A DNA stretch of 64,000 bases from NCBI GenBank assembly GCA_031416315.1, contig JANOTL010000223.1, forward strand, positions 1 to 64,000, in the 5' to 3' direction. Of the stretch, positions 18,432 through 36,730 are shown in pieces. Position 1 is the stretch's first letter. Each line of letters starts with the position of its first letter. This DNA comes from Pseudomonadota bacterium (GTDB lineage Bacteria > Bdellovibrionota_B > Oligoflexia > Oligoflexales > CAIYRB01). The notes beneath the pieces are model-generated. The model was not told the DNA's origin, made no database searches, and saw only the letters and a list, made by a program, of their open reading frames with translations. The translations under genes were made by a program, and so were the position numbers.

Positions 18432-19634
18432 ATGAGCCAACAACAGAACTTGCCCGCCAAGATTCTGATCGTCGATGACGACCCCTCCGTGGGCCAGTCG
18501 CTCGACGAGCCGCTCGTGCGTTACGGCGTGAAGATCGACAAAGCGCCGGCGCTCGAGACCGCGCTCTACATGTTCAACACGAACCGCTACGACGTCGTCC
18601 TGGTCGAGATCGAGTTCGCGCCGCTCGCCGGCCTCGCGTTGATCCAGAAGTGGCGGAGCCACGACACCCTCGAAAAGCGCTCGACCGCCTTCATCATGCT
18701 GAGCGGCAACAAGACCCTAGGCACCAACGAAGGCCTGATCCGCGAGCTCGGTGACCTCGAGGTGCTGGTGAAGCCCTTCGGCGCCATCCAGCTCCTCCCG
18801 TATCTAAGCCGCGCGCTCGCGACCAAGAAAAGAACGCAGGCGTACTTCGACCTCAAGACGAAGATCCTCGACTATTACGAGAAATCGAAGGACTTCGACA
18901 AGGCCGCCGAGCAGGTCCAGAAGCGGCTCGGAGACCTTGGTCCGAAGGGCTTTCACATGCTCTACGACCTCTACGAGAAGGCAGGCCGGTTCAACGACGC
19001 GCTCGCGGTGATTAACCCTTTGCTCGACCGCGACCCGAACAACATCGCCCTCCTGAACGCCAAGGCGCGCGTGCTCATGCGCCTCGGCAAGCTCCAGGAC
19101 GCGCGGACCTGCCTCGAGAAGGCCGACGAGCTCGCGCCGCAGAACATCGACCGTCTGAACAGCATGGCCGACGCTTACCTGAAGCTGAAAGATGCTTCCG
19201 GCACGGTGAAGACCTTCAAGAAGCTGCTGGACCTCTCGCCCGAGCAGCCGGATCTGAAGTTCGACATGTACTCGCGCCTCTACGAGAACGGCTTCGACAA
19301 CGAGGCGGCGGCGTTCGGCAAAGAGACGGCGAAGCCGATGGAGATCGTTCGCCACTACAACAACAAGGGCGTCATGCTGTCGAAAGACGGCAAAATCGAC
19401 GAGGCCCTCACCGAGTACCAGCGCGCCTTGCGCTTCTTCCCGAAGTTCAAAGAGAACTACCGCATCCACTTCAACATCGCGCTCGCCAACTTGGCGCTGA
19501 AGACGCGTGAAGGCCTGGATGCCGCGCACAAGAACCTCAAGACTTGCCTCGAGCTCGCGCCCGAGTTCGACAAAGCGCTCCGGACCTTGGAAACCATTGA
19601 GAAATCGCTGACGACCAAGAAAAAGGTGTCGTGA
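18432..19634 (+). CDS. Receiver-domain plus TPR-repeat protein
   Basis: KILIVDDD, MLSG, LVKPF; TPR helices (YNNKGV.LS.DG...EAL.EY.RAL). Confidence 0.85.
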   Translation: MSQQQNLPAKILIVDDDPSVGQSLDEPLVRYGVKIDKAPALETALYMFNTNRYDVVLVEIEFAPLAGLALIQKWRSHDTLEKRSTAFIMLSGNKTLGTNEGLIRELGDLEVLVKPFGAIQLLPYLSRALATKKRTQAYFDLKTKILDYYEKSKDFDKAAEQVQKRLGDLGPKGFHMLYDLYEKAGRFNDALAVINPLLDRDPNNIALLNAKARVLMRLGKLQDARTCLEKADELAPQNIDRLNSMADAYLKLKDASGTVKTFKKLLDLSPEQPDLKFDMYSRLYENGFDNEAAAFGKETAKPMEIVRHYNNKGVMLSKDGKIDEALTEYQRALRFFPKFKENYRIHFNIALANLALKTREGLDAAHKNLKTCLELAPEFDKALRTLETIEKSLTTKKKVS

Positions 19635-25573: not shown

Positions 25574-26863
25574 TCATGAAGCGATTCTATCCGCGACGCG
25601 GGGTCCGTGCAGCCAGAAAGTCCGAAGCCCGCCCCGGCCCTTGATCTCGATGATGCCCCGATCCTCCAGGACGAAGTCGTGGGGCGCCAAGTCCTCGAGC
25701 GCGAGAGCCGTCGCCTCCGCCACCTGCACAAGGCCGGCCTCGCCGTGCGATTCCATGCGGCTCGCGAGGTTCACCGTGTCGCCCCAGAGGTCGTAGATGA
25801 ACTTGCGCTGGCCGATGACGCCGGCGACCACCGGGCCGGTATTGACGCCGATGCGCAGGTCGAGCGTCGTCCCGTTCGAGGCGTTGAACGTGAGGACCAC
25901 GTCCTGCATCGCGAGCGCCATGCGCGCGATCCGCAGCGCGTGGTCGGTCGTCCGATCCGGCAGGCCGGCGCAGGCCATATAGGCGTCACCGATCGTCTTG
26001 ATCTTCTCGACCCCGAAATGCTCGGCCAGGGCGTCGAAGCGCGAGAAGATGCCGTTCAGGAGCTCGACGATTTGTTGCGGCCCCGTCGACAGGGCGAGCG
26101 GCGTGAAGTTCACCAGGTCGGCGAACATCACGGTGACGTTCTCGTAGTGGTCGGCGATCGTGCCCGGCGTCGCGCGCAACCGGTCCGCCACTTGGCGCGG
26201 CAGGATGTTGAGGAGAAGTTCTTCCGACTTCGCATGCGCCGCCGCCAGCTCGATCCCCCGTTGGAAGTCGATGCGGAACACGGCTTCGAGCCGGAAAGAC
26301 ACGATGCCGCCGACGATGTGGGAGATGATGAAGAAGTTCACCAAGGTCACGAGCGCGTGCGTGCCGATGAAGCCGGTGGCTGCAGACACCGTGACGACGA
26401 TCGCGGTGTAAGCCAAGGCGGCGCCGGCCGCGTAGACGTAGCGCAGGCGCAGGCACGTGTAGAAGACGATCGTGAACAGGACGGTGGCCTGGCGTTGGAA
26501 CACCGCGGCGACGCCCGGCGCATAGAGAACGAGGAGCACGTCGGTGATGCCGAAGTTCATCACCGTGAGGATCGCCGTCGACCACTGGTAGCGCTTCTCT
26601 GCGCGCGGAAAGTAGGTCTGGACGAAGGTAAAGGCGAGCATCGGGATCGTGAAGAAGAAGATGATCCGGCTGCGGATGGCGTCCATTTCGCCGAACGCGA
26701 TGAGGTCGGTGATCAGCAACAAGAGGTAGCCGCAGATGCCGATGACCGCGATCGCGCGCAGGAGTCCTAGGGAGCGGCGGTTGTGGCGCTCGCGGAAGCG
26801 GGCCTCGAGCTCCGGCGGGAAGGGCTCGATGAATTTCCAGGTGGTCTTGAGTCGCGAGAACAT
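25574..26863 (-). CDS. Membrane-bound class III adenylate/guanylate cyclase
   Basis: About 6 TM; LLLNILP, FADLVNFT, KIKTIGDAYM, YDLWGDTVNLASRMES; start uncertain. Confidence 0.92.
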   Translation of the reverse strand: MFSRLKTTWKFIEPFPPELEARFRERHNRRSLGLLRAIAVIGICGYLLLLITDLIAFGEMDAIRSRIIFFFTIPMLAFTFVQTYFPRAEKRYQWSTAILTVMNFGITDVLLVLYAPGVAAVFQRQATVLFTIVFYTCLRLRYVYAAGAALAYTAIVVTVSAATGFIGTHALVTLVNFFIISHIVGGIVSFRLEAVFRIDFQRGIELAAAHAKSEELLLNILPRQVADRLRATPGTIADHYENVTVMFADLVNFTPLALSTGPQQIVELLNGIFSRFDALAEHFGVEKIKTIGDAYMACAGLPDRTTDHALRIARMALAMQDVVLTFNASNGTTLDLRIGVNTGPVVAGVIGQRKFIYDLWGDTVNLASRMESHGEAGLVQVAEATALALEDLAPHDFVLEDRGIIEIKGRGGLRTFWLHGPRVADRIAS

Positions 26864-26948
26864 GCGGGCGGGAAGGCCTCCGCTCTGTTCATCGGTCCGC
26901 GCTCTGCGCTCTTGAGATGCGGGCGGCGATCCCGGCCGCACCATTGCG

Positions 26949-27509
26949 CTAGTTGGCGGGCTTTGCCGGTTTGCCAAGCGCCAGGAAGGCGCCGATCAAG
27001 TCTTCGTGCGCCGGTGATTTCACTTTCCCGGGGTTGGCGTAGTGGAAGCGGCGGTCGATTCCCTTGCCCTTGGTCGCGCGGACGAAGTCGAAGACGAGCT
27101 GGTCGAAAGCCAGCACGTTGATCGACGCGAGCTCAGCCCCCGCCAGGGCGAGCGGCCGGATCGTCTCCCATTCGCTCGCGGTGAGCGGCCGCTCGGGCTC
27201 GGCCTTCACCCGGCCGGCGGGAACGTGGACGAGGCGGGCGCCGCCGGCGTCGACGAAGATCATGAACTGTCCGGCGTCGGCCCAGCCGCCCTCGCTGAAA
27301 AGGCCGTAGCCGACCTCGGCTTTCGGGTCGGCGGCGAAGAGCTTCTCGAAGTCCTTCTGCCAGGCGGTCGCGACCTGTGCGGCGGGCACAGCTTCGGCGC
27401 TCCCGCCTTGGGCCGTGTCCTTCGCCGAGTCCTTCGTTTCAGGGCCTAAGCCCGTGATGCAGCCGCAGGCGGCGCAAAGCGCCATGAGGGCGAATAAAGC
27501 GCATCTCAT
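26949..27509 (-). CDS. Hypothetical lipoprotein
   Basis: MRCALFALMALCAACG-C; follows the upstream ORF by 1 nt. Confidence 0.6.
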   Translation of the reverse strand: MRCALFALMALCAACGCITGLGPETKDSAKDTAQGGSAEAVPAAQVATAWQKDFEKLFAADPKAEVGYGLFSEGGWADAGQFMIFVDAGGARLVHVPAGRVKAEPERPLTASEWETIRPLALAGAELASINVLAFDQLVFDFVRATKGKGIDRRFHYANPGKVKSPAHEDLIGAFLALGKPAKPAN

Positions 27510-27510
27510 T

Positions 27511-27834
27511 TCAGTTCCCGTCGCAGAATTTGATCGACTTGATCGTGCGCGGGAGGCCCGGGCTCTCGATCGCGAGGTCGGCGTAGCGGAATTTCTTGCC
27601 GTAGGCACCCTTCGCGTACTCCAAGGAGGTCTGCAGCCGGCAGTCCTCCTTCATCGTCTGGCGGTTGCGCGCGCAGACGGGGATCATCCCAGGGTCGACC
27701 TTCTCCATCATCCCGGGCTCGGCCTCGAGCACCCAGACGCAGTTCTTTCGGCCTTCCGGGTCGCAGCCCCCCATGAGGAGGCCGGCGCCGGCAAGGAGCG
27801 CTACCGAGGCGAGGTGCTGCAGAAACCTTGGCAA
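27511..27834 (-). CDS. Small cysteine-containing lipoprotein
   Basis: LMGG-C lipobox plus four further Cys. Confidence 0.65.
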   Translation of the reverse strand: MPRFLQHLASVALLAGAGLLMGGCDPEGRKNCVWVLEAEPGMMEKVDPGMIPVCARNRQTMKEDCRLQTSLEYAKGAYGKKFRYADLAIESPGLPRTIKSIKFCDGN

Positions 27835-27917
27835 GCTTGGACCCGTCCTGGTACGAATTGAGTTTCTTGCGGCTATTCTATTCTGGCGGCCCGCATCCGG
27901 TAAAGGACGGCTCTTCC

Positions 27918-28922
27918 ATGCGTTACGAGATCGGACGTGAGCTCTCGCGCTTCAAAGCCCTCGCCGAGCGCCTCGGCGGCGAGCCCCTGGCACCTGGCGC
28001 TTACGCTCTGCGGCCTAAGCGCATCGCCATGAGCCTGCCCGCAGGCAAGGACCTCGGACTGACCTTGATGGGGATCGTCCACGGCAACGAATGGGCCGGC
28101 TTAGCGACTCTGAACAATACGCTGTCGCTGATCGAGGCGGGCGTCGTCGAGCTCAAGATGCCCGTGGCCTTCGTGATCGGCAACCCCGACGCGGCTCGTG
28201 AGAACAAGCGCTTCCTGGGCAAAGACTTGAACCGCTCTTTCGCGGCCAAGCCGAACGGCGGCAATATCCCGGAGGAGGCGCGCGCGCGCGAGCTCGGAAG
28301 GATCCTCGAGCGCACGGCGTACCTGGTCGACTTCCACCAGACCTCACGCTCCGGCGACCGACCCTTCTTCATCTTTCCGTACAACCGACGCAGCTTCCTG
28401 TTCGCCCGCGGGATCGCGCCGCGGAAGACGATCGTGACGCATTGGGGACGACCCTTCTCCGCCGAAGGCATGTGCTCCGACGAGTTCACCAACTCCCACG
28501 GCGGCTGCGGCGTCTCGCTGGAGCTTGGGCAAAACGGCTTCGATCCGTATCAGATCGCGGTCGGGGTCGACTGCGCCTTGTGGGCGATCGCGACGACGCA
28601 GCGCTTCCTCGAACGCGGTGAGGCGCTCTCCGCTCACGGCGATCCGGAGAGCGAGGGCGAGCTCTACACCTGGGCCGAGATCATGGACTGGCCGGCCGAA
28701 GGCAGTCACGTCGAGCTGGTCGAGGGGCTCACCAACTTCCGCGAGATCGCGGCGGGGGAGCGGCTCGGAGCCGTCGACGGTCGACCGATTGTAGCCCGGG
28801 TCGCCGGGCGGATGCTCTTTCCGAAGTATCTGACGCGAGAGCAGCAAAACGCCTTGGAAACGCGGCCGACCGAGTTGTGCCGCTTGGTGCGGCGCATATC
28901 CGAATCGGACTTGCCGGGCTGA
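27918..28922 (+). CDS. Succinylglutamate desuccinylase/aspartoacylase family (M14 zinc hydrolase)
   Basis: VHGNE, GNP.A...KRF..DLNRSF, DFHQ, LELG. Confidence 0.85.
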   Translation: MRYEIGRELSRFKALAERLGGEPLAPGAYALRPKRIAMSLPAGKDLGLTLMGIVHGNEWAGLATLNNTLSLIEAGVVELKMPVAFVIGNPDAARENKRFLGKDLNRSFAAKPNGGNIPEEARARELGRILERTAYLVDFHQTSRSGDRPFFIFPYNRRSFLFARGIAPRKTIVTHWGRPFSAEGMCSDEFTNSHGGCGVSLELGQNGFDPYQIAVGVDCALWAIATTQRFLERGEALSAHGDPESEGELYTWAEIMDWPAEGSHVELVEGLTNFREIAAGERLGAVDGRPIVARVAGRMLFPKYLTREQQNALETRPTELCRLVRRISESDLPG

Positions 28923-28945
28923 CGCGTGAGCGTCAGCTCGTCACT

Positions 28946-29080
28946 TCAGTCGCCGCCCGGGCGACCGTCGTCTTCTTTGCGGCCGCAGGTCTCGACCTGG
29001 CCAGCCTTCTTACCGCCGCCGTGGCGCGTGTGCGCAGGCTTGTTCACGACTTTGACTTTTTTAGACGTGCTCGGTTTCAT
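28946..29080 (-). CDS. 44-aa putative ranthipeptide-type precursor MKPSTSKKVKVVNKPAHTRHGGGKKAGQVETCGRKEDDGRPGGD
   Basis: GAGGT SD 6 nt before ATG, own promoter; KKVKVVNK leader-like motif; C-X3-E-D-D core; downstream of rSAM operon. Confidence 0.6.
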   Translation of the reverse strand: MKPSTSKKVKVVNKPAHTRHGGGKKAGQVETCGRKEDDGRPGGD

Positions 29081-29100
29081 AAGTATACCTCGACCACCAG

Positions 29101-29141
29101 TTTGGTAACAAAATGATACCAAAAAATGAGAACCGCGTCCA
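29101..29141 (-). promoter_or_regulatory. Sigma70-like promoter TGGACG-N17-TATCAT with overlapping palindrome TTTGGTA-N9-TACCAAA
   Basis: -35 at 29136-29141, extended -10 at 29113-29118, inverted repeat 29101-29123. Confidence 0.55.
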
Positions 29142-29229
29142 GAGACATCGGCTCGACTCGCTGTCATTTCAGTAAGTTGCAGTTTCCGCGGGAGCGCGGC
29201 GCAGCCTCTGCCCCGTTGAAAAGCAAGTC

Positions 29230-31167
29230 TCATGCCGGCCTCGGCGTGAAGCTGACGCGGATCATTCCGGACTCGATCGACATCTCGCCGCCGTAGACCT
29301 CGCGCGTCAAACGCCCGAGCCCGGCGAGGAGGTCACGATAGAAATGGTCGCCACCGAGCGTGCGGATGGGCGGCGGCGTCGGCCGCGACAACAGCTCCAG
29401 GACGGCGGGGTCGGGGAGGGCCCCGGTCTCGGAGACGAAGGCGAGCTCGAGGCGCTCGGGGAAGTCGTCGCCGCCTCGGACGCGGTAGCGCAGGCTGATC
29501 TGTTGCTCCTCGATCGCGCCCTCGTCGTCGGCAGCGAAGAGCGCCGCATAGGCGGCGATCGCCGCGATCAAGGCCTTCACGTCGAAGGCAAGAGGCATCA
29601 TGACGAGGTCTTCTTCGCCCGGTTCGGGGCTCGCGACCATCGCAACACGGACGCCCATGCGGCGCAGGGCGGCGCCGTGCGTGCGGAGGAACTCGTCCAT
29701 CAGCGCTCGGGCGCTGCGCGCCGTGGGAGCGAGCGAGCCCTCCTCCAGGGCCGAGGCGATGAGAATGCTACGGATCGCGAACTCCAGGCGCGCGGCGTGG
29801 CGCTCGGCCTCGCGGACGGCGCCGGCGCCACCCGCGGTCGTGCCGAGGATCGCGAGCATGCCTTGCAGCTTGGCCACCGGCGTATTCAGATTGTGGCTCA
29901 GGAGCGAGATGAAGTTGCCCTTCAGATCGGCCGTGCGGGCGTGGACGCGCCCTTGCGCCGCGAGCCGCCACCTTTGGAAGGCGGTCAAGGAAAGGCGCGC
30001 GAAGCCGACGACGATGAAGGTCGAAAGGCCGAAGTAAGCGCAGTCGAAAAGCGGCATGTAAAGGCCGAGCTTTCTGATGGCCAAGGCGTTGACGAAGGGA
30101 CCGGCCAGCATGGCGACCAAGAACATCCCGGTCGCCGCGGTGCCGCCGAAGAGCGCCATCGCGCCGGTGATCACCAGGCAAAAAACAGCGACCGCGAGGA
30201 CGACGTAGGACTGGGTCGGCAGGCGCACGGTAGCGCCGTCGAGGAACATCGAGGCGATCTGCGCCCAGAAGACGTGGAGCGGCGTGCCGGAGATCTCGGG
30301 ATCGGCCTCGGCTCGGTCGTAGACGGTGCGCGTAAAACGCTTCACGTACTGGCCGCCGGCGGCGAGGGCGCCGGCCAGGTCGCTGCCGACGAAGGCGTAG
30401 CGCGCGGACGGCAGCGCGGGCAGCGCCAGGGCCTCGCGGAAGCTCAGGCGGCGGATCGTCTGCGGATCGGGGAGGTTCAGGACGTAGGCCGGCTGGATGC
30501 TCGGAAGGAGCTCGGTGAGCCAGGGTGCATCCTCTTTCTGCGGCGCGCCGCCCATCGTCTCGTTGGCGATGACGGGGAGCACCCAGTCGTCCCACTTGGC
30601 CGAGTAGGGACAGCTCGACTGCACTTTTTCGGGCAGGTCGTCGCACGGCGCGTCGTCGAGCGGCGTCGCGAGCTTGGTCAGCTCCTCCGGCAAGCGGTCG
30701 AGGTGCGCCGAGGGCGCCGCGATGTAGACCTTGGTCCTGCCGTTCTGCGCGAGCCGAGCGAGCGTCTCGACGAGCGGCAAGAGGTACACCTCGTCGAGAG
30801 GATGGGCCTCGGGATCGAGGCCTAGGAAGATCACCGGCACGTTGGCCGCCTCGAGCTTCTCGAGGATCCGCGCGTAGGAGGCGAGGGCCGCGTCGGGGAC
30901 GACGCCACCCGGCGCGCGGCCCAAGACGCGCGCGTCGACGGCGTCGGCGGAGACGGCGAGGAGGGCGTCGCCGCTTTGGTCCGGGCGGCCTTTGGCGAGC
31001 TTGACGCTGAACTCGAGGAGCTTTTGCTCGGCGAGCAAGGACAAGCGCGACGAGCGCTGTCCGGAATAGACGACGTAGGTCAGCGAGGCGAAGAGGATCA
31101 TCGCGACCGTGATCGGGTAAACGACGTCGAACCACCACAGCCGGTCGCGCCAGGAGCTGCGAAACAT
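29230..31167 (-). CDS. CHASE2-type sensor with intact H-box but degenerate HATPase domain
   Basis: TM + CHASE2-like region + 3 TM; NFISLLSHNLNTP; no N-box or DxGxG. Confidence 0.75.
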   Translation of the reverse strand: MFRSSWRDRLWWFDVVYPITVAMILFASLTYVVYSGQRSSRLSLLAEQKLLEFSVKLAKGRPDQSGDALLAVSADAVDARVLGRAPGGVVPDAALASYARILEKLEAANVPVIFLGLDPEAHPLDEVYLLPLVETLARLAQNGRTKVYIAAPSAHLDRLPEELTKLATPLDDAPCDDLPEKVQSSCPYSAKWDDWVLPVIANETMGGAPQKEDAPWLTELLPSIQPAYVLNLPDPQTIRRLSFREALALPALPSARYAFVGSDLAGALAAGGQYVKRFTRTVYDRAEADPEISGTPLHVFWAQIASMFLDGATVRLPTQSYVVLAVAVFCLVITGAMALFGGTAATGMFLVAMLAGPFVNALAIRKLGLYMPLFDCAYFGLSTFIVVGFARLSLTAFQRWRLAAQGRVHARTADLKGNFISLLSHNLNTPVAKLQGMLAILGTTAGGAGAVREAERHAARLEFAIRSILIASALEEGSLAPTARSARALMDEFLRTHGAALRRMGVRVAMVASPEPGEEDLVMMPLAFDVKALIAAIAAYAALFAADDEGAIEEQQISLRYRVRGGDDFPERLELAFVSETGALPDPAVLELLSRPTPPPIRTLGGDHFYRDLLAGLGRLTREVYGGEMSIESGMIRVSFTPRPA

Positions 31168-33095
31168 CAGGCCCCCTTCGCTTTCTGGAGGGCGAGCGTG
31201 AACTCGGCGCCTTTGCCGGGGGTCGAGCTGAGGTCGATCGCGGCGCCGATCTGGTCGGCGAAATACTTGCTCAGGTAAAGGCCCAGGCCGTGGCCTTTCA
31301 GCTTGTAAACCGAGTCGTCCTTCACGCGGTAGAACTTCTCGAAGATCCGCTCGTGGAACTCCGGCGAGATGCCGGGGCCCTGGTCCGCGACGCGGATGAG
31401 GAGACGACCGGGCGCGGGCTCGACGCGGATGGCGACGCGGCCGCCGACGGGCGAGTACTTCACCGCGTTGGAGACGAGGTTGTAGAGGATCTGCGAGAGA
31501 AGCGTGGGATCGGCGAGGGCGCTCGCGGTGTTAGCGACACCGTCGGCGACGTCGACCTCGATCGCGACCTTGCCCTCCGAGGCGCGCGACTCGAACTGGC
31601 GCACGACTTTCTGCACGACGGCCAAAGAGTCGATCCTGGCGAGGGGCAGGCGCTTCTTCTCCTGATAGGTGCCCCCAGCGGCGAATTTGGCGAACTGCTG
31701 GATGCCGTTCAGGTAGTCGTCGAGCTCCTCGCAGCTTCCCAAGGCGCGCACGAGCGCGTCTTTCGGCGTGCCTTCGAGGTCTTTCAAGGCCGAAGACGTC
31801 TCGAGCGCGGCGCGCGCGCGACGGTTGATCGCGGCGAGCTCCTCGGCGAAACGGTCGAGAAAGCGCTCTTGGATGGCGGCCAGCTCACCCTCCGATTTGG
31901 CGATGGCTTCGTGCTCGGCGCGCATGCGGGCCTCGAGACCGAGCCGCCGCAGGGCGCCGTAGGTCATCGCGAGGGACGAGAAGAGCGCCGCGTCGGCGAG
32001 CGGGAGGTAGCGGTTGAGCCAGGCGAAGGCGGCGGCGTGGAGGAGGAGGAGGAGGGACCACCCGCCGATGAAGAGGAAGGAGGCGAAGCCGACGCTGGAT
32101 TTCCAGATGAGCAAGGTCGCGACGGTGATGATGAAGGTCTGAAAGAGGTCGAAGGGGCGGGGAACGTCGCGTAGGAATTTGTTTTGCGTGAGGTTCGCCA
32201 GGGCGACGCCTTGGACGTGGACGACCGGGATGCCGTCGGCCAGGTCCTCGCCGTCCATCTGCCAAGGCGAGTTGACGAACGTGGCCTCGCGGTCGTGCGA
32301 GGTCCAGTTGCGCCAGGAGGTGTAACCGATGAGCAGCGTCTTGCCCTTAAGCTCGGCCAAGGTCGCGGGCTGTGCGACCGCGAGCGACTCCGCTTTCCAC
32401 GTGGCGAGCTGGCTCGGATGGAAGTAGTTGAGCTTCACCGCCGTACGGTCCTCGGGGAGGCGCCTCGCCTCGCCACGCTCGGGAGCGAGAAAGCTCAGGT
32501 CCACGCCTTTGCGCGCCGCCAGGAGATAGGGAAGGAAGGGGAGCTCGCCCTCTTCCTTGACGACGAAGTCGCGGACGATCTCGCGGCGGTAGTAGCGCGT
32601 GACGTCCGCCTTCGCGAGCTGGTCGGGAATCTTCTTGAAAGCCGCGGGGAGAAGCTCCGGCGATTGATTCTTCACCGAGAGGTCGAAGACCCCGATGACG
32701 AGGCGGCGGTCGCGGACCGCTAAGGCGGCGAGCTCTTCGGCCTGCGGGTCGCCGTACGGAAAGATCTGGTTCGGGACGAGGACGGCGATGTGCGCGGCGT
32801 CGGTTAAAAGAGCGGCGCGGACGACGCGCAGAAGCGAGCGCCACGACAGATTGCGGGGCTTCGTGCGGTTCTTCTCGAGGTCGGGGCCGTCGAGCTCGGT
32901 GGTGGTCCAGTCGTCGATGGCGATGACGCCTAAGTCCGAGGTGTCGATCGAGGTCGGGGCCAAGCGCGTACGGATGTCGAAGAGCTTGCTCTCGACGCGG
33001 TCGCGTAGGGGCGAGCTGTTGTAAACGTAAAGGAAGAGGGCGCCGACGACGGCGGCGAAGGCGAGAAGGAGCGCGTTGGCGATCTTGTCACGCAT
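31167..33095 (-). CDS. CHASE2-type sensor histidine kinase with intact HATPase but no phospho-His
   Basis: ESKLFD.R.RL, VIAIDD, LKGKTLLIG, P.VHVQ..ALANL; NLVSNAVKYS, DQGPGI, FEKFYR, GHGLGL; H-box reads RFAEEL. Confidence 0.82.
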   Translation of the reverse strand: MRDKIANALLLAFAAVVGALFLYVYNSSPLRDRVESKLFDIRTRLAPTSIDTSDLGVIAIDDWTTTELDGPDLEKNRTKPRNLSWRSLLRVVRAALLTDAAHIAVLVPNQIFPYGDPQAEELAALAVRDRRLVIGVFDLSVKNQSPELLPAAFKKIPDQLAKADVTRYYRREIVRDFVVKEEGELPFLPYLLAARKGVDLSFLAPERGEARRLPEDRTAVKLNYFHPSQLATWKAESLAVAQPATLAELKGKTLLIGYTSWRNWTSHDREATFVNSPWQMDGEDLADGIPVVHVQGVALANLTQNKFLRDVPRPFDLFQTFIITVATLLIWKSSVGFASFLFIGGWSLLLLLHAAAFAWLNRYLPLADAALFSSLAMTYGALRRLGLEARMRAEHEAIAKSEGELAAIQERFLDRFAEELAAINRRARAALETSSALKDLEGTPKDALVRALGSCEELDDYLNGIQQFAKFAAGGTYQEKKRLPLARIDSLAVVQKVVRQFESRASEGKVAIEVDVADGVANTASALADPTLLSQILYNLVSNAVKYSPVGGRVAIRVEPAPGRLLIRVADQGPGISPEFHERIFEKFYRVKDDSVYKLKGHGLGLYLSKYFADQIGAAIDLSSTPGKGAEFTLALQKAKGA

Positions 33096-34462
33096 CAGGC
33101 GGAGAGGAGCTCAGGGGCGCGCTCGAGGAGGATCGCGTAGACCCGCATCGCTTGCTCGATCTCGACCGCTTGCAGGCGGCAGAACATCGGGTCGACCGCG
33201 AACGTGTCGCCGGTGGCGGCCTTGTTCTCGTGCAGGCAGCCGCCGGCGCACCATTCGCGCATCCAGCAGGTGTCGCACGGGGCCTTTTTTGCCTCGCGAA
33301 AGGCGGAAACCGCGTCGAGCTTCTTCTGATCGAGGCCGTGCAAGACGTCGCCGAAGCGCTCGGACTCGTCCTCGTTGAAGCGGTGGCAGAGGTGGAAGGC
33401 GCCCTCGGCCGAGACGGTGAGGTAGTTGACGCCGGCGCCGCAGGCTTTGCCGCCGGTCTTGCCGTCGCGGATGTTCAGAAGGTGCTTCTTGACGTTGTCC
33501 AAGCGCAGGAGCGCCTTGAAGTCCCCCGCCTCGACCAGGCGGTCGATGACCTTGACGTAGACGGCGGCGAGCTTCGCCGCGTCGGCCTCGGTGAAATGGA
33601 AGACCTTGAGCGGCGAGGCCTGATGATAGACCGCGAGGCGGTAGTTGTGCGTCGTCAGCGTCTTCAGGATCGCCTCCTCGAGGAGGTTCACGTTGTCGCG
33701 CATGACGGTGGAGCGCAGGATGAAGCTGCGGAGGCTCGCGAGCTGCTCTTGGAAGGCGCGCAGCTTTTTCTCGACGACGGGCTCGGACGACTGCTGGCCC
33801 ACCATCGGGCGCTGCTTCGCCTGCAGGCCGTGGCCGTCGTAAGAGAGGGTGACCGAGACCTTCTTTGCCTTGAGCCACGCGAGCTTCTCGTCGTTCAAAA
33901 GAGTGCCGTTCGTGGTGACGGCATAGCTGAAGCGCGTGCCGGTGGCGGCTTCGCGCGCCTCGCACCAAGTGACGACGTCTTTCATGACGGGGTAGTTGAG
34001 GAAGGGCTCGCCGCCGAAAAAGATGACGTGAAAGTAGGCTTTGTCCTTGGTCAGGAGCTCGAGCGCGGCGACGGCCGTGTCCAGCTTCATCAAGCCCTTG
34101 TTGCCGTAGTCGCCTTCGCCGGCGAAACAGTAGAGACAGCGCAGATTGCAGCCTTGCGCCAGGTTGAGCGAGCAGGCGACGACGTCGGTCTTCACGTCCC
34201 GGGGCGGAGGCATCGGCAGGCCGCGCGCGATCTCGTCGAGCTCGGCGTCGGCCCCTTCCACGGACTCGCGGCCTTGGACGTGGCGGATGAGCTCATCGGG
34301 CGCTTCGAGGACGTGCGCCGAGGGAACGTGGAGGAGGAAGCCGGCGTCGAAGGCCTTCCAGACGCCCCGGAAAGCTCGCACTTCCGACGCGACGCGGGCT
34401 TCCAGCTCGAGGTCACGAGCGTCGGCGGCGAGCGAGGCGGTTGCGGGTGCGATCGGTGTCAT
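33095..34462 (-). CDS. Radical SAM/SPASM peptide maturase (PapB/CteB/QhpD-like)
   Basis: CNLRCLYC, FFGGEP, TTNGTLL; SPASM CGAG..CHRF..CDTCWMREWCAGGC..C; N-terminal RRE-like segment FLLHVPSAHVLE. Confidence 0.9.
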   Translation of the reverse strand: MTPIAPATASLAADARDLELEARVASEVRAFRGVWKAFDAGFLLHVPSAHVLEAPDELIRHVQGRESVEGADAELDEIARGLPMPPPRDVKTDVVACSLNLAQGCNLRCLYCFAGEGDYGNKGLMKLDTAVAALELLTKDKAYFHVIFFGGEPFLNYPVMKDVVTWCEAREAATGTRFSYAVTTNGTLLNDEKLAWLKAKKVSVTLSYDGHGLQAKQRPMVGQQSSEPVVEKKLRAFQEQLASLRSFILRSTVMRDNVNLLEEAILKTLTTHNYRLAVYHQASPLKVFHFTEADAAKLAAVYVKVIDRLVEAGDFKALLRLDNVKKHLLNIRDGKTGGKACGAGVNYLTVSAEGAFHLCHRFNEDESERFGDVLHGLDQKKLDAVSAFREAKKAPCDTCWMREWCAGGCLHENKAATGDTFAVDPMFCRLQAVEIEQAMRVYAILLERAPELLSA

Positions 34463-34607
34463 ATTGCTACCTTTTCGACAGGTGTCGAGGTGACGCGGCG
34501 ATCTAACTAGTTGTTATAACACGTAGATGCCAAACTCGGGGCGCGTCCCAGCAGCCATTGAGCAAGAACGATACCATATAAGGAAGCCTGTCCTGGGAGG
34601 AGCCTCG

Positions 34608-35807
34608 GTGCATCGTCTCGGCCTCATTTTTGGTCTCTTTTTGGCCGCGTCGCTGGCGCTGGCGCAGGGCGGCGCCTTGCCCAAGGGCGACCTCGGTACG
34701 GTCGACCAGGGGAAGGTGAAGGCGCCTTCGGCGCCGAAAGGCGAGGCGCGCCGCAACTGCCTTCTCGACTCGCTGCGCCCGACCGGAGGCAGCGGCGTGT
34801 GGAGCGCCACGGGCGACGCCTTCTATTTGCTCGCGAGCCGAGGGCCGACCGCGAAGATGCAGAAGAAGGGCGCCGAGTCGCTGAAAACGAAGTACACGCT
34901 CTACAAGCTCACGATGAAGGGGCGGAAGGTCGAGGCGCTGCTGTCGCTCGACCACAAGGGCGACGCGACGCTCGTCGCCTTCGGTAGCGGCGAGGAGCTC
35001 ACCGGCATCTCCGCGGTCTCGTTCATCGGCAAGAGCATGGGCTGCAACGAAGGCCCCGCCGGCATGGTGAGCATCTCGATGCAGGGCGGCAAAGCCGTGC
35101 AGGGGACGGGACAGTTCGCGCTCGCAGCGGGGCCGATGGGGCGCACGCTGATCGACGCAAAAAAGCTGAACGTGCTCGAGATGGACACGTCGAACTTCCA
35201 GACGCGCTCGGTGCGGGCGCTCAAGGACTTCGAGCGGCCCCTTTGGTTCGATGGCGGCGCGCGTCGGCTCGTCACGTTCCGCGACGACGGCAAGGTCCGC
35301 GGGCTCGTCGATTACAAGTCGGAAGACGACAAGAAGGCGCGGAAGCTCGCATTCAAGCCGGAGGAGCGCGCTCTGCAGCAGAAAGACCTCTTCGGCATGG
35401 CGCGGCTCGACGCGGCGAAGAACGCGATCGAGATCCAGGAGCTCCCCGAGTGGTCGGGACAGAAGGAGCCGCAGAGCTTCCGCGTCGTGCTGCCGGGGGC
35501 GTTCGCGGTGGCGACCGCGGGCGTCGACATCCACTTCGAGAAGCGCCTGGCGCTCGTTTCCGGCGGAACTTTCGTCGCGCGGCAGCAGTGGCAGAAGCTT
35601 TTCGTTTTCGCGTACCAGCGCCAGGATCCGCTCTTCGTGATCAGCGCGCCCGGCAAGCAATACGTGAGCTTTGCCGCGTTCGATCCGACGGGTGCTTACG
35701 CGGCGGTCGAGGCGCGCGACATCGAGTCGCGGGCGACGACGAGCTTCAAGATCTTCGACGTGGCGAAGAAGAAGATCGAGGAGATCAAGCTGCCGGCGCC
35801 GAAGTGA
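34608..35807 (+). CDS. Secreted hypothetical protein, probable beta-propeller
   Basis: GGAGG SD, signal peptide, WS..GD.FY and FDPTG propeller-like motifs. Confidence 0.65.
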   Translation: MHRLGLIFGLFLAASLALAQGGALPKGDLGTVDQGKVKAPSAPKGEARRNCLLDSLRPTGGSGVWSATGDAFYLLASRGPTAKMQKKGAESLKTKYTLYKLTMKGRKVEALLSLDHKGDATLVAFGSGEELTGISAVSFIGKSMGCNEGPAGMVSISMQGGKAVQGTGQFALAAGPMGRTLIDAKKLNVLEMDTSNFQTRSVRALKDFERPLWFDGGARRLVTFRDDGKVRGLVDYKSEDDKKARKLAFKPEERALQQKDLFGMARLDAAKNAIEIQELPEWSGQKEPQSFRVVLPGAFAVATAGVDIHFEKRLALVSGGTFVARQQWQKLFVFAYQRQDPLFVISAPGKQYVSFAAFDPTGAYAAVEARDIESRATTSFKIFDVAKKKIEEIKLPAPK

Positions 35808-35860
35808 GCTTTGAAGATGGCGAAGATAGCGAGGTTCAAAGCGTGGGCACAAAAAGCGGG

Positions 35861-36730
35861 ATGAGCGTGCGGGTCGGGATCGCGACCTCCGTGGACCATC
35901 CGCAGCTGATCGACGACGACCGGCTGTTCCTGCCTTACCTCGCGGCGCGCGGCATCGCCACGGAGCCGGCGATCTGGAACGATCCCGCCGTCGACTGGCG
36001 GCGCTTCGATGCGGTGGTGATCCGCTCGACCTGGGACTACTACGAGAGGATCGCCGAGTTCCGCCTCTGGCTCGACGGCCTGATCGCGGCCGGAGTGACG
36101 GTCTGGAACCCAGTGCCGACGGTCCTGCGCAACGCCGATAAGACGTATCTGCGCGAGCTCGAGAAAATGGGCGTGCTGACCCTGCCCACGGTCTGGATCG
36201 CGCCCGGCGAGGCGGAGACCATCGCCTCCGTGCTGAAGGCGGTGCCGTGGCAGGATTTGGTGGCGAAGCCGTCGATCTCCGCGGGCGCCTATCGCACGGT
36301 GCGCTGTTCGAAGCGAGAGCTCGAGGCGAATCCAGGCTTGATCGCGACGATCATCGCCGACTCGCACGCGATGATCCAGCCGTTCATGCAGGAGATCGTC
36401 GACGAGGGCGAGTGGTCCTTCCTCTTCTTCGGCGAGGAGCTTTCGCACGCGGTGGTGAAGAAGCCGAAGCCCGGAGACTTCCGGGTCCAGTACACGCACG
36501 GCGGCAAGCACGTGAAGGCCGAGCCGCCGGAGGCCTTGGCGGCGGCGGTCGCGAAAGTCTTCGCCCTGATCCCGGAGCCGCCGCGGCTCTTCACGCGGGT
36601 CGACGGCATCTGGACCAAAGGCCGGTTTCTCTGCATCGAGATCGAGATGATCGAGCCGGTGCTCTTCCTCGCGGAAGACAAGGAATCGCCGGTGCGCTTC
36701 GCGAAGGCCCTCGCGGACCTACTTCGATAG
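35861..36730 (+). CDS. ATP-grasp protein (RimK/glutathione synthase-like)
   Basis: IRSTWDY, NADKTYL, KPSISAGA, IQPF, DFRVQ..HGG, EIEMIEP. Confidence 0.82.
   Translation: MSVRVGIATSVDHPQLIDDDRLFLPYLAARGIATEPAIWNDPAVDWRRFDAVVIRSTWDYYERIAEFRLWLDGLIAAGVTVWNPVPTVLRNADKTYLRELEKMGVLTLPTVWIAPGEAETIASVLKAVPWQDLVAKPSISAGAYRTVRCSKRELEANPGLIATIIADSHAMIQPFMQEIVDEGEWSFLFFGEELSHAVVKKPKPGDFRVQYTHGGKHVKAEPPEALAAAVAKVFALIPEPPRLFTRVDGIWTKGRFLCIEIEMIEPVLFLAEDKESPVRFAKALADLLR

Follow-up and report, generated by a model that had tools for sequence, protein, structure and literature searches.

A putative ranthipeptide-like module attached to a probable split CHASE2-family sensor kinase and sigma-54 promoter-like sites in an Oligoflexales genome

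The window analysed here is a stretch of 64,000 nucleotides (contig JANOTL010000223.1, assembly GCA_031416315.1) from a bacterium assigned to the Oligoflexales. Between positions 28,946 and 34,462 it holds a locus encoding a radical SAM/SPASM enzyme (the maturase), two membrane sensors of the CHASE2 family (HK1 and HK2) and a peptide with a single cysteine. The best explanation of this locus, a tentative one whose chances are put somewhat short of even, is a sigma-54 feedback circuit with a split sensor kinase at its core, to which a ranthipeptide-like module is attached. Judged by its sequence, the locus appears to be wired like an autoinduced signalling unit, with sigma-54 promoter-like sites and a candidate activator encoded elsewhere in the genome.

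Organization and distribution of the locus

An original prediction, made from the letters of the window, had placed four open reading frames (ORFs) here, and all four are found on the minus strand at the positions it gave (Table 1). The genes of the maturase, HK1 and HK2 are coupled stop to start as it had described, both junctions being one-base TGATG overlaps. The peptide ORF has its own Shine-Dalgarno-like site (GAGG) 5' of its ATG, again as claimed, and the locus indeed contains no exporter, leader peptidase or response regulator. No Rfam match lies within positions 27000-36000.

The maturase is 47% identical to that of an 'Oligoflexales bacterium' having the same gene order. Comparisons cover 95 genomes of the order and 131 of the phylum, 53 HK2-positive and 78 HK2-negative (genomes carry G numbers, the source genome being G000, and loci L numbers). 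The maturase-bearing set numbers 28: 25/95 order genomes, two class-level relatives and one split copy; the class-level outgroup genomes are G095 and G096 (loci L106 and L107). The co-occurrence counts are drawn from related genomes and are hence not independent, and the Fisher value for the association of the candidate activator with HK2 is for this reason too strong. HK1 lies directly 3' of the maturase gene in 25/25 order-level loci, and HK2 follows it on the same contig in 24 of them and on a continuing contig in the remaining one. HK2 is present in 27/28 maturase genomes, and HK1 and HK2 are adjacent and in unchanged order wherever both are visible.

Two complementary half-kinases

The original prediction spoke of two kinases; neither is complete. 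Orthologues were counted for 45 HK1 and 49 HK2 proteins, fragments being excluded (HK1 of L087, L090, L102 and L107; HK2 of L091 and L109). HK1 keeps the N, G1, F and G2 boxes in 45/45 and lacks the H-box histidine in 44/45, the lone exception (L104) having a histidine at the equivalent position. HK2 keeps the H-box histidine in 49/49, has a G1 box in 0/49, and retains the N, F and G2 boxes only in the two class-level outgroup genomes, these boxes being lost in 47/49. Pfam analysis detects HATPase_c without HisKA in 20/20 HK1 and HisKA without HATPase_c in 20/20 HK2. Profile alignment of HK1 with HK2 reaches a probability of 98.9% for the sensor and 94% for the cytoplasmic part, and both align with intact metagenomic CHASE2 kinases. 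Truncated or frameshifted ORFs had been excluded from an earlier kinase alignment (HK1 of L036 and L038; HK2 of L031); alignments A1 and A2 contain 20/23 sequences each.

By these comparisons HK1 and HK2 are paralogues that have reciprocally lost catalytic parts. Neither unites the H box with the N, G1, F and G2 boxes in one chain, the arrangement of a canonical homodimeric class I histidine kinase, and the two very probably form an obligate heterodimer. In the first step of the mechanism proposed here, rated as highly probable, one CHASE2 kinase would have been duplicated, its copies would have lost complementary functions, and the ATP-binding domain of HK1 would phosphorylate His425 of HK2 within the heterodimer. 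The outgroup HK2 proteins (L106 and L107, in G095 and G096), with N, F and G2 kept and G1 lost, stand at a halfway point of the split. On a short contig, G001 carries another HK1-HK2 pair of the split type (L111, G001:C136).

The assignment of both sensors to CHASE2 stands in part. Pfam CHASE2 (PF05226) has no match in the HK1 and HK2 proteins of the window at E<=1; it matches 14/20 HK1 orthologues (best 1e-22) and 7/20 HK2 orthologues (best 8e-6), and the intact relatives pass its cut-off. Atlas returns CHASE2 at 0.95 for the sensor part of HK1, with 194 shared features. The HK2 sensor also possesses two cysteines, Cys175 and Cys186, that are invariant in order-level orthologues and missing from the two outgroup proteins; a periplasmic disulfide between them is probable.

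A candidate sigma-54 activator

The candidate activator is a gene of REC-AAA+-helix-turn-helix (HTH) type on a separate contig of the source genome (G000:C203:26361-27815); rpoN is present in the same genome. In a scan of 80 metagenomic loci, four (L144, L145, L147 and L148) have a sigma-54 activator that follows one intact, unsplit kinase of this family; the other 76 show no activator motif and mostly concern unrelated kinases, and a scan with P0256 alone gave no match. L144 is one operon comprising a maturase, a one-cysteine peptide, an intact CHASE2 kinase and the activator, while L147 shows kinase and activator in a stretch that begins inside the kinase. All four activators match the C203 gene best, over the full length, receiver and HTH included; that of L144 scores 502 bits against it (50% identity), the next gene reaching 305. 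The L144 kinase aligns over its full length with the family of the split pair (hhalign 100%, 571 columns).

Across the phylum, with 12 candidates scored per genome, an activator orthologue with a full receiver match is found in 46/53 HK2-positive and 3/78 HK2-negative genomes, these three being 75-85% complete. A further 18 HK2-negative genomes, all of one family, keep the activator gene with a diverged receiver, the match beginning at residue 37-92. In the six inspected (L255-L260; G073, G065, G059, G056, G074 and G068) the acidic pocket has diverged and the acceptor Asp and HTH are kept, which possibly reflects a switch to phosphorylation-independent activation.

Orthology and co-occurrence make the C203 activator the likely partner of the kinase pair. 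In the second step of the mechanism, of similar likelihood, the phosphate would move to this unlinked activator and both sigma-54 promoters would be switched on, giving positive feedback. The parts of an NtrC-type system are in place (REC with sigma-54 interaction and Fis-type HTH domains, rpoN, -24/-12 promoters), the pairing with the kinases being predicted.

This wiring could be misread: HK2 might be a phosphatase or inhibitor while HK1 targets another protein, or the C203 gene might not be the partner and the palindromes described below might bind an unrelated repressor, the maturase and peptide being passengers. The boxes kept in the two outgroup HK2 proteins and the histidine of the L104 HK1 fit such a reading, as do a neighbourhood that is conserved in general (smpB and others) and the missing full-length activator match in 7/53 HK2-positive genomes. 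It is nevertheless quite improbable, as HK1 and HK2 are adjacent in fixed order with exactly reciprocal losses, the C203 activator is the orthologue of a gene standing in one operon with an intact kinase, and in each of the 18 genomes (six inspected) that lack the kinase pair yet retain this activator, the receiver is diverged. Moreover, a comparison gene beside the locus (34527-35804) does not track the system.

Promoter-like sites and palindromes

A sigma-54 -24/-12 motif precedes 13/15 peptide genes (shuffle mean 0.7, maximum 3; reverse strand 1), mostly 115-160 bases before the ATG, and also 3/3 peptide genes found later. The same motif lies 5' of 13/24 orthologous maturase genes (shuffle mean 0.87), in addition to the maturase gene of the window. 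The peptide gene had been credited with a promoter of its own, and a promoter-like site is present; its conserved type is sigma-54, a sigma-70 scan giving only two weak 9/12 sites that overlap the palindromes.

These palindromes have a 7-3-7 architecture. A matrix built from the peptide sites only finds 9 matches of at least 13 bits in the 6.4-Mb genome; three of the top five lie in this locus, one of them over the maturase ATG. Matches of at least 13 bits occur at 14/25 maturase starts (shuffle mean 0.11), as against 1/17494 control sites with a Shine-Dalgarno sequence plus ATG. Upstream of the activator, no match of at least 13 bits was seen in 29 of the 30 loci scored. On the DNA side of the second step, activation would possibly proceed through these palindromes, the targets being the maturase-HK1-HK2 operon and the peptide gene. 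Inspection led to rejection of the palindrome as a hairpin in RNA, as pairing is poor in the second copy and each half-site varies on its own. To note, in the maturase-less genome G075 a 452-residue gene without a Pfam family is preceded by a sigma-54 site and by two palindromes spaced 41 bp from each other (L272:1420-1504); it is possibly another target of the same regulator.

The maturase

The SPASM domain with seven cysteines described in the original prediction is borne out: Cys341, 359, 396, 399, 405, 409 and 428 are invariant in 71/71 aligned maturase rows and aligned with those of 5WGG, the best sequence match in the PDB (E 4e-38). The top NCBIfam models are PapB (222.5 bits), QhpD (220), the Nif11-type (203) and SCIFF (174), all under their cut-offs; for the PapB equivalog NF047865 the cut-off is 340 bits, and 0/95 genomes exceed it. 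An AlphaFold2 model computed from the 71-row alignment (pLDDT 92, pTM 0.89) shows three strands followed by helices at residues 35-81. Foldseek returns 5WGG as the best structural match (TM 0.76), and VIA-align places model residues 32-446 on residues 1-450 of the 5WGG chain (Z 39.0, rmsd 2.8, 401 aligned). Since the alignment starts at model residue 32 and 5WGG residue 1, the three-strand-plus-helix domain overlays the N-terminal domain of 5WGG. We take 5WGG to be CteB and this domain to be its RRE, the RiPP (peptide synthesized on the ribosome and modified after translation) recognition element. The RRE-like N-terminus claimed earlier is thus recovered in the predicted fold. By sequence and model the maturase is an RRE-containing radical SAM/SPASM enzyme of the CteB/PapB/QhpD group; the system falls outside the PapB, SCIFF and Agr families as defined.

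The precursor peptide

The peptide is short and highly charged. Its leader holds KKVKVVNKP, and a single C-GRK-EDD follows downstream; both motifs had been pointed out before and are read in the ORF. It has no NCBIfam or Pfam match. A peptide gene is found in 21/28 maturase-bearing genomes, which upholds the expectation that the ORF would be conserved beside orthologous maturases; 15 were read by eye in the loci, three came from a profile, two were read after HK2 in the outgroup and one is truncated by its contig. The profile of the 15 recovered the three non-training peptides with E values of 0.0009-0.015 among 10045 frames, two of them having moved beside the neighbouring lipoprotein-like gene (G047 and G048). 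A peptide profile matches 19/131 genomes, all maturase-positive, 18 of these being training rows. A leave-one-out hidden Markov model puts the peptide first in its locus for 16/20; those of L052, L053, L106 and L107 rank 39, 4, 2 and 8, and rest on position, start and the cysteine motif. In three close peptide pairs 36/77 changed codons are synonymous, fitting a coding gene.

Only one leader proline and the cysteine are invariant in 20/20 peptides, and 16/20 have a single cysteine. An Asp or Glu follows the cysteine at CX3 in 10 and at CX4 in 10, at either position in 18/20; the spacing alternates between CX3 and CX4 by lineage and the ring residues are variable. The original prediction had named a CX3E motif. 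The cysteine is conserved throughout, whereas in the peptide family of the window itself an acid stands at CX3 in 2/9 and Asp stands at CX4 in 9/9, which makes Cys32-Asp37 the better bet here. PapB accepts CXnD for n=0-6, with a preference for CX3D where several spacings compete (PMC9413430), and this preference keeps Glu36 in play. PapB is also described as cross-linking to the carboxylate of a C-terminal Gly (PMC12373016); this would account for one of the two exceptions, a peptide ending in Gly at CX4. The peptides do not have six cysteines in about 45 residues or a repeated CX3D, traits of SCIFF and freyrasin precursors. Two peptides (L034:1031-1192 and L035:6344-6505) have three to four extra cysteines in the leader or linker, with acids nearby, and could take more than one ring; those of L106 and L107 (G095 and G096) have a different leader and a Pro-rich tail.

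As a linked precursor with a leader, a cysteine donor and a downstream acceptor, the peptide has by sequence the layout of a ranthipeptide. It is highly likely to be the substrate of the maturase, and in all likelihood one thioether, from the cysteine to an acid, is formed on it. In the third step of the mechanism, judged equally probable, the RRE of the maturase would bind the leader, and Cys32 would be joined by a thioether to the carbon adjoining a carboxylate further downstream, in the likeliest case that of Asp37 (beta carbon) and otherwise that of Glu36.

Is the peptide the ligand?

In the fourth step the ring-closed peptide would exit the cytoplasm by an unlinked route and serve as one, dispensable CHASE2 ligand, the outcome being a kin-specific, quorum-sensing-like loop. 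If the other steps hold, the chance of this is nearly even; for the whole loop, with the peptide as the sensed ligand, it is rather below even.

Several observations weigh against it. Of the 53 genomes with the kinase pair, 26 have no maturase orthologue, among them the well-assembled G022 (94%) and G023 (97%), and the peptide cannot therefore be the only input of the pair. In these genomes no PapB-like match is found at E<=1e-25, and no peptide of the family is detected by profile in their 28 loci (best E 0.8). In the FastTree tree of HK2, which has long branches, the maturase-less G022 is nested beside the maturase-bearing G043, with the outgroup that has both parts set apart, which indicates several separate losses of the peptide module. 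The peptide was not found in 7/28 maturase genomes; among these, the contig of G011 ends inside HK2 and G041 is 75% complete, and searches of G002, G012, G027, G037 and G049 gave nothing convincing. The maturase gene lies apart from the kinases in G095 and G096, and the peptide gene does so in G047 and G048. The locus has no linked exporter, signal peptide or dedicated protease, the genes common to 20 orthologous loci include no exporter or peptidase, and the Peptidase_C39 matches elsewhere in G000 are weak. In L145 and L148 the kinase and activator are present, and upstream of them no maturase is seen. Between the maturases of L144 and the window the identity is only 25%, and the two stand apart in the FastTree tree, the L144 peptide does not match the family profile, and the palindrome is missing from L144. 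The two architectures may therefore have recruited their maturases separately, which would strengthen the functional link and leaves homology of the two peptides unsupported. The palindromes themselves sit 3' of the promoters and over start codons, an arrangement that a repressor also fits. The exact palindrome pattern shows no excess over a reversed control in 131 genomes; with a sigma-54 site near only one of 20 other palindrome sites examined, a wider regulon is not supported.

In favour of the proposal, the genome G028 (81% complete), where no maturase was found, keeps the sigma-54 promoter and both palindromes, and at the position of the peptide gene has a remnant ORF with neither cysteine nor leader motif (L084:2145-2246, plus strand). 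A faster divergence of the sensors in maturase-bearing genomes, a confounded result given below, points the same way.

The split kinase and activator could also operate as set out above with the peptide as an output only, the heterodimer sensing another envelope or environmental cue and the peptide acting elsewhere. This is a serious possibility without being a probable one. It would account for the kinase-pair genomes that lack both maturase and peptide, for L145 and L148, for the many sensor positions conserved with or without a maturase, and for the sigma-54 site with tandem palindromes before an unrelated gene in G075 (1/20 sites). It sits less well with the translational coupling of the maturase to the kinases in the window and its place directly 5' of HK1 in every order-level locus, or with L144, a further and distant architecture in which this kinase family is again tied to a maturase-peptide pair. 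The ring sequence also differs between lineages. Pheromone types likewise vary between lineages.

Alternatively, the modified peptide might stay in the cytoplasm and act there as a feedback regulator that tunes either the activator or the kinase pair. The lack of a linked exporter, protease or signal peptide, the shortness and charge of the peptide and the promoter elements it shares with the kinases are all compatible with this. It is unlikely, however: the cytoplasmic kinase parts are conserved while the peptide varies save for the cysteine and one acid, a poor fit to a conserved intracellular target. In addition, at matched cytoplasmic identity the sensors diverge more in maturase-bearing genomes than in those without (HK1 0.28 vs 0.40; HK2 0.24 vs 0.37), a comparison confounded by the dominance of one genus in the maturase-less group.

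The original prediction had a mono-cyclised peptide made and sensed by the co-encoded receptors. The peptide as conserved partner of the maturase and the autoinduction-like wiring speak for it; as the sole ligand the peptide is not sustained, given the genomes that keep the kinase pair without the maturase. The reading preferred here, a sigma-54 feedback circuit around a split kinase with the peptide module attached, leaves room for other inputs.

Other features and neighbouring genes

Table 1. Positions of the genes and predicted sites of the locus in the window
Feature	Position	Strand	Remarks
Maturase: radical SAM/SPASM enzyme of the CteB/PapB/QhpD group, RRE fold at the N-terminus	33095..34462	-	455 aa; CX3CX2C at 105-112
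HK1: CHASE2-family membrane sensor, catalytic and ATP-binding (CA) domain intact, phospho-acceptor His missing (Glu418 there)	31167..33095	-	642 aa
HK2: paralogous CHASE2-family membrane sensor, H-box His425 invariant, CA domain degenerate	29230..31167	-	645 aa
Precursor peptide: beta-strand-type leader VKVVNKP, Cys32, Asp37 (CX4D) or Glu36 (CX3E) as candidate acceptor, then a short follower tail	28946..29080	-	44 aa
Sigma-54 (-24/-12) promoter-like site of the peptide gene; overlaps HK2 stop codon	29223..29237	-	conserved in orthologous loci
7-3-7 palindrome copy 1, consensus GGTATCA-N3-TGATACC; top-scoring site of the genome; probable regulator-binding site	29104..29120	.	matrix scan
7-3-7 palindrome copy 2, 31 bp from copy 1, over peptide start codon	29073..29089	.	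matrix scan
Sigma-54 promoter-like site of the maturase-HK1-HK2 operon	34562..34576	-	conserved in orthologous loci
7-3-7 palindrome over maturase start codon	34455..34471	.	site not part of matrix training

Convergent with the peptide gene and separated from it by 23 bases lies a hydrolase gene of the AstE/AspA family (27918-28922, plus strand), found near the locus in 13/25 and also beside the kinases in the maturase-less G020 and G028. Its product could trim the follower tail of the peptide; the family is presumably related to zinc carboxypeptidases. Next comes a small cysteine-containing lipoprotein-like gene without a Pfam match (27514-27834, minus strand), present in 5/5 other genomes searched; in G047 and G048 the peptide gene lies directly 5' of its orthologue. 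On the other side, the divergent gene at 34527-35804 (plus strand) encodes a secreted-looking protein with no Pfam family, for which Atlas gives a lead to PD40 beta-propeller clusters (0.91). Although often beside the maturase, it was rejected as a component, since many genomes carry it and lack the kinases. Neither for a nearby membrane adenylate/guanylate cyclase (25577-26977, minus strand) nor for a gene at 18432-19631 (plus strand) that resembles receiver-TPR proteins near three orthologous loci was a link to the system found.

Significance

As an extracellular sensor domain CHASE2 is common, and the accessible part of the literature found names no ligand for it. The locus offers a peptide, an enzyme, a candidate receptor pair, an activator and promoters, so that the questions of a CHASE2 ligand and of a ranthipeptide receptor become testable with five cloned genes. 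The boldest form of the proposal, with chances well below even, is an undescribed class-wide peptide signalling that has one thioether ring of radical-SAM origin as its autoinducer and an obligate CHASE2 half-kinase heterodimer as the receptor, driving its own synthesis through a sigma-54 activator. Were it true, this would be the first ligand class for CHASE2 and the first receptor for ranthipeptides; the lineage-specific ring sequences would be pherotypes and the maturase-less genomes listeners only. Whatever the peptide does, the kinase pair offers a clean example from nature of histidine kinase duplication followed by loss of complementary halves in the two copies, with intact (L144), half-degenerate (G095 and G096) and fully split states at hand for study. 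The maturase may serve as a one-ring macrocyclase, a possible use suggested by the variation of its natural substrates in spacing and ring sequence.

The original prediction knew of no described system with this architecture, and none was found in the literature, the coverage of subscription journals being partial; nor was any paper found that joins CHASE2 with radical SAM, or Oligoflexia with ranthipeptides. The accessible text of a survey of 3,421 predicted precursors (PMC10288494) does not mention kinase, Bdellovibrio, Oligoflex or quorum; its supplement could list members of the family.

Comparison with known systems

In PapA/PapB (freyrasin), the SCIFF system CteA/CteB and QhpD, as here, an RRE-containing radical SAM/SPASM enzyme is found. 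According to the available part of the source, PapB requires a cysteine donor with the carboxylate acceptor C-terminal to it (PMC12373016), the same arrangement as in the peptide of the window. Unlike those systems, this family has one conserved cysteine rather than six, with CX3 or CX4 spacing by lineage, and occurs in Gram-negative Oligoflexia-like bacteria, co-encoded with sensor kinases. SCIFF peptides have been tied to quorum sensing by knockout transcriptomics, no receptor being named in the accessible portions of these reports (PMC8102284, PMC8326336).

For HK1 and HK2 the nearest published case, as far as the accessible text goes, is FasB/FasC/FasA of group A Streptococcus, where adjacent membrane kinase-like proteins heterodimerise, one giving the kinase domain and FasC giving H246, an activator then being phosphorylated (PMC12675982). 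HK1 and HK2 are likewise adjacent, and by sequence they are paralogues with complementary catalytic parts, a putative FasBC-like pair with divided kinase domain and histidine. For Fas it was deletions that demonstrated the division, and FasB may retain a usable histidine, whereas here reciprocal loss is fixed in the sequence across about 50 genomes. The present system differs further in its CHASE2 sensor, its sigma-54 activator output and the attached RiPP module.

Quorum sensing of the Agr or ComCDE type combines a small precursor, a modifying enzyme, a membrane histidine kinase, an activator, positive feedback and a variable peptide core. The locus has the same parts list, apparent positive feedback and a variable core, the ligand role of the peptide being a proposal. 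It differs in having no AgrB- or ComAB-like processor or exporter (20 orthologous loci), and in its predicted radical thioether chemistry, split kinase and unlinked sigma-54 activator.

A close counterpart in composition is the L144 operon, which shares the kinase family, an orthologous activator, a PapB-like maturase and a one-cysteine peptide. The window, by contrast, has a duplicated, split kinase, an unlinked activator and a peptide gene with its own promoter 3' of the kinases; the low identity of the two ungrouped maturases and the lack of the palindrome in L144 also separate them. Taken together, the locus is read as functioning in the manner of a ranthipeptide module joined to a two-component circuit of the NtrC type, and its operation may resemble quorum sensing of the Agr type.

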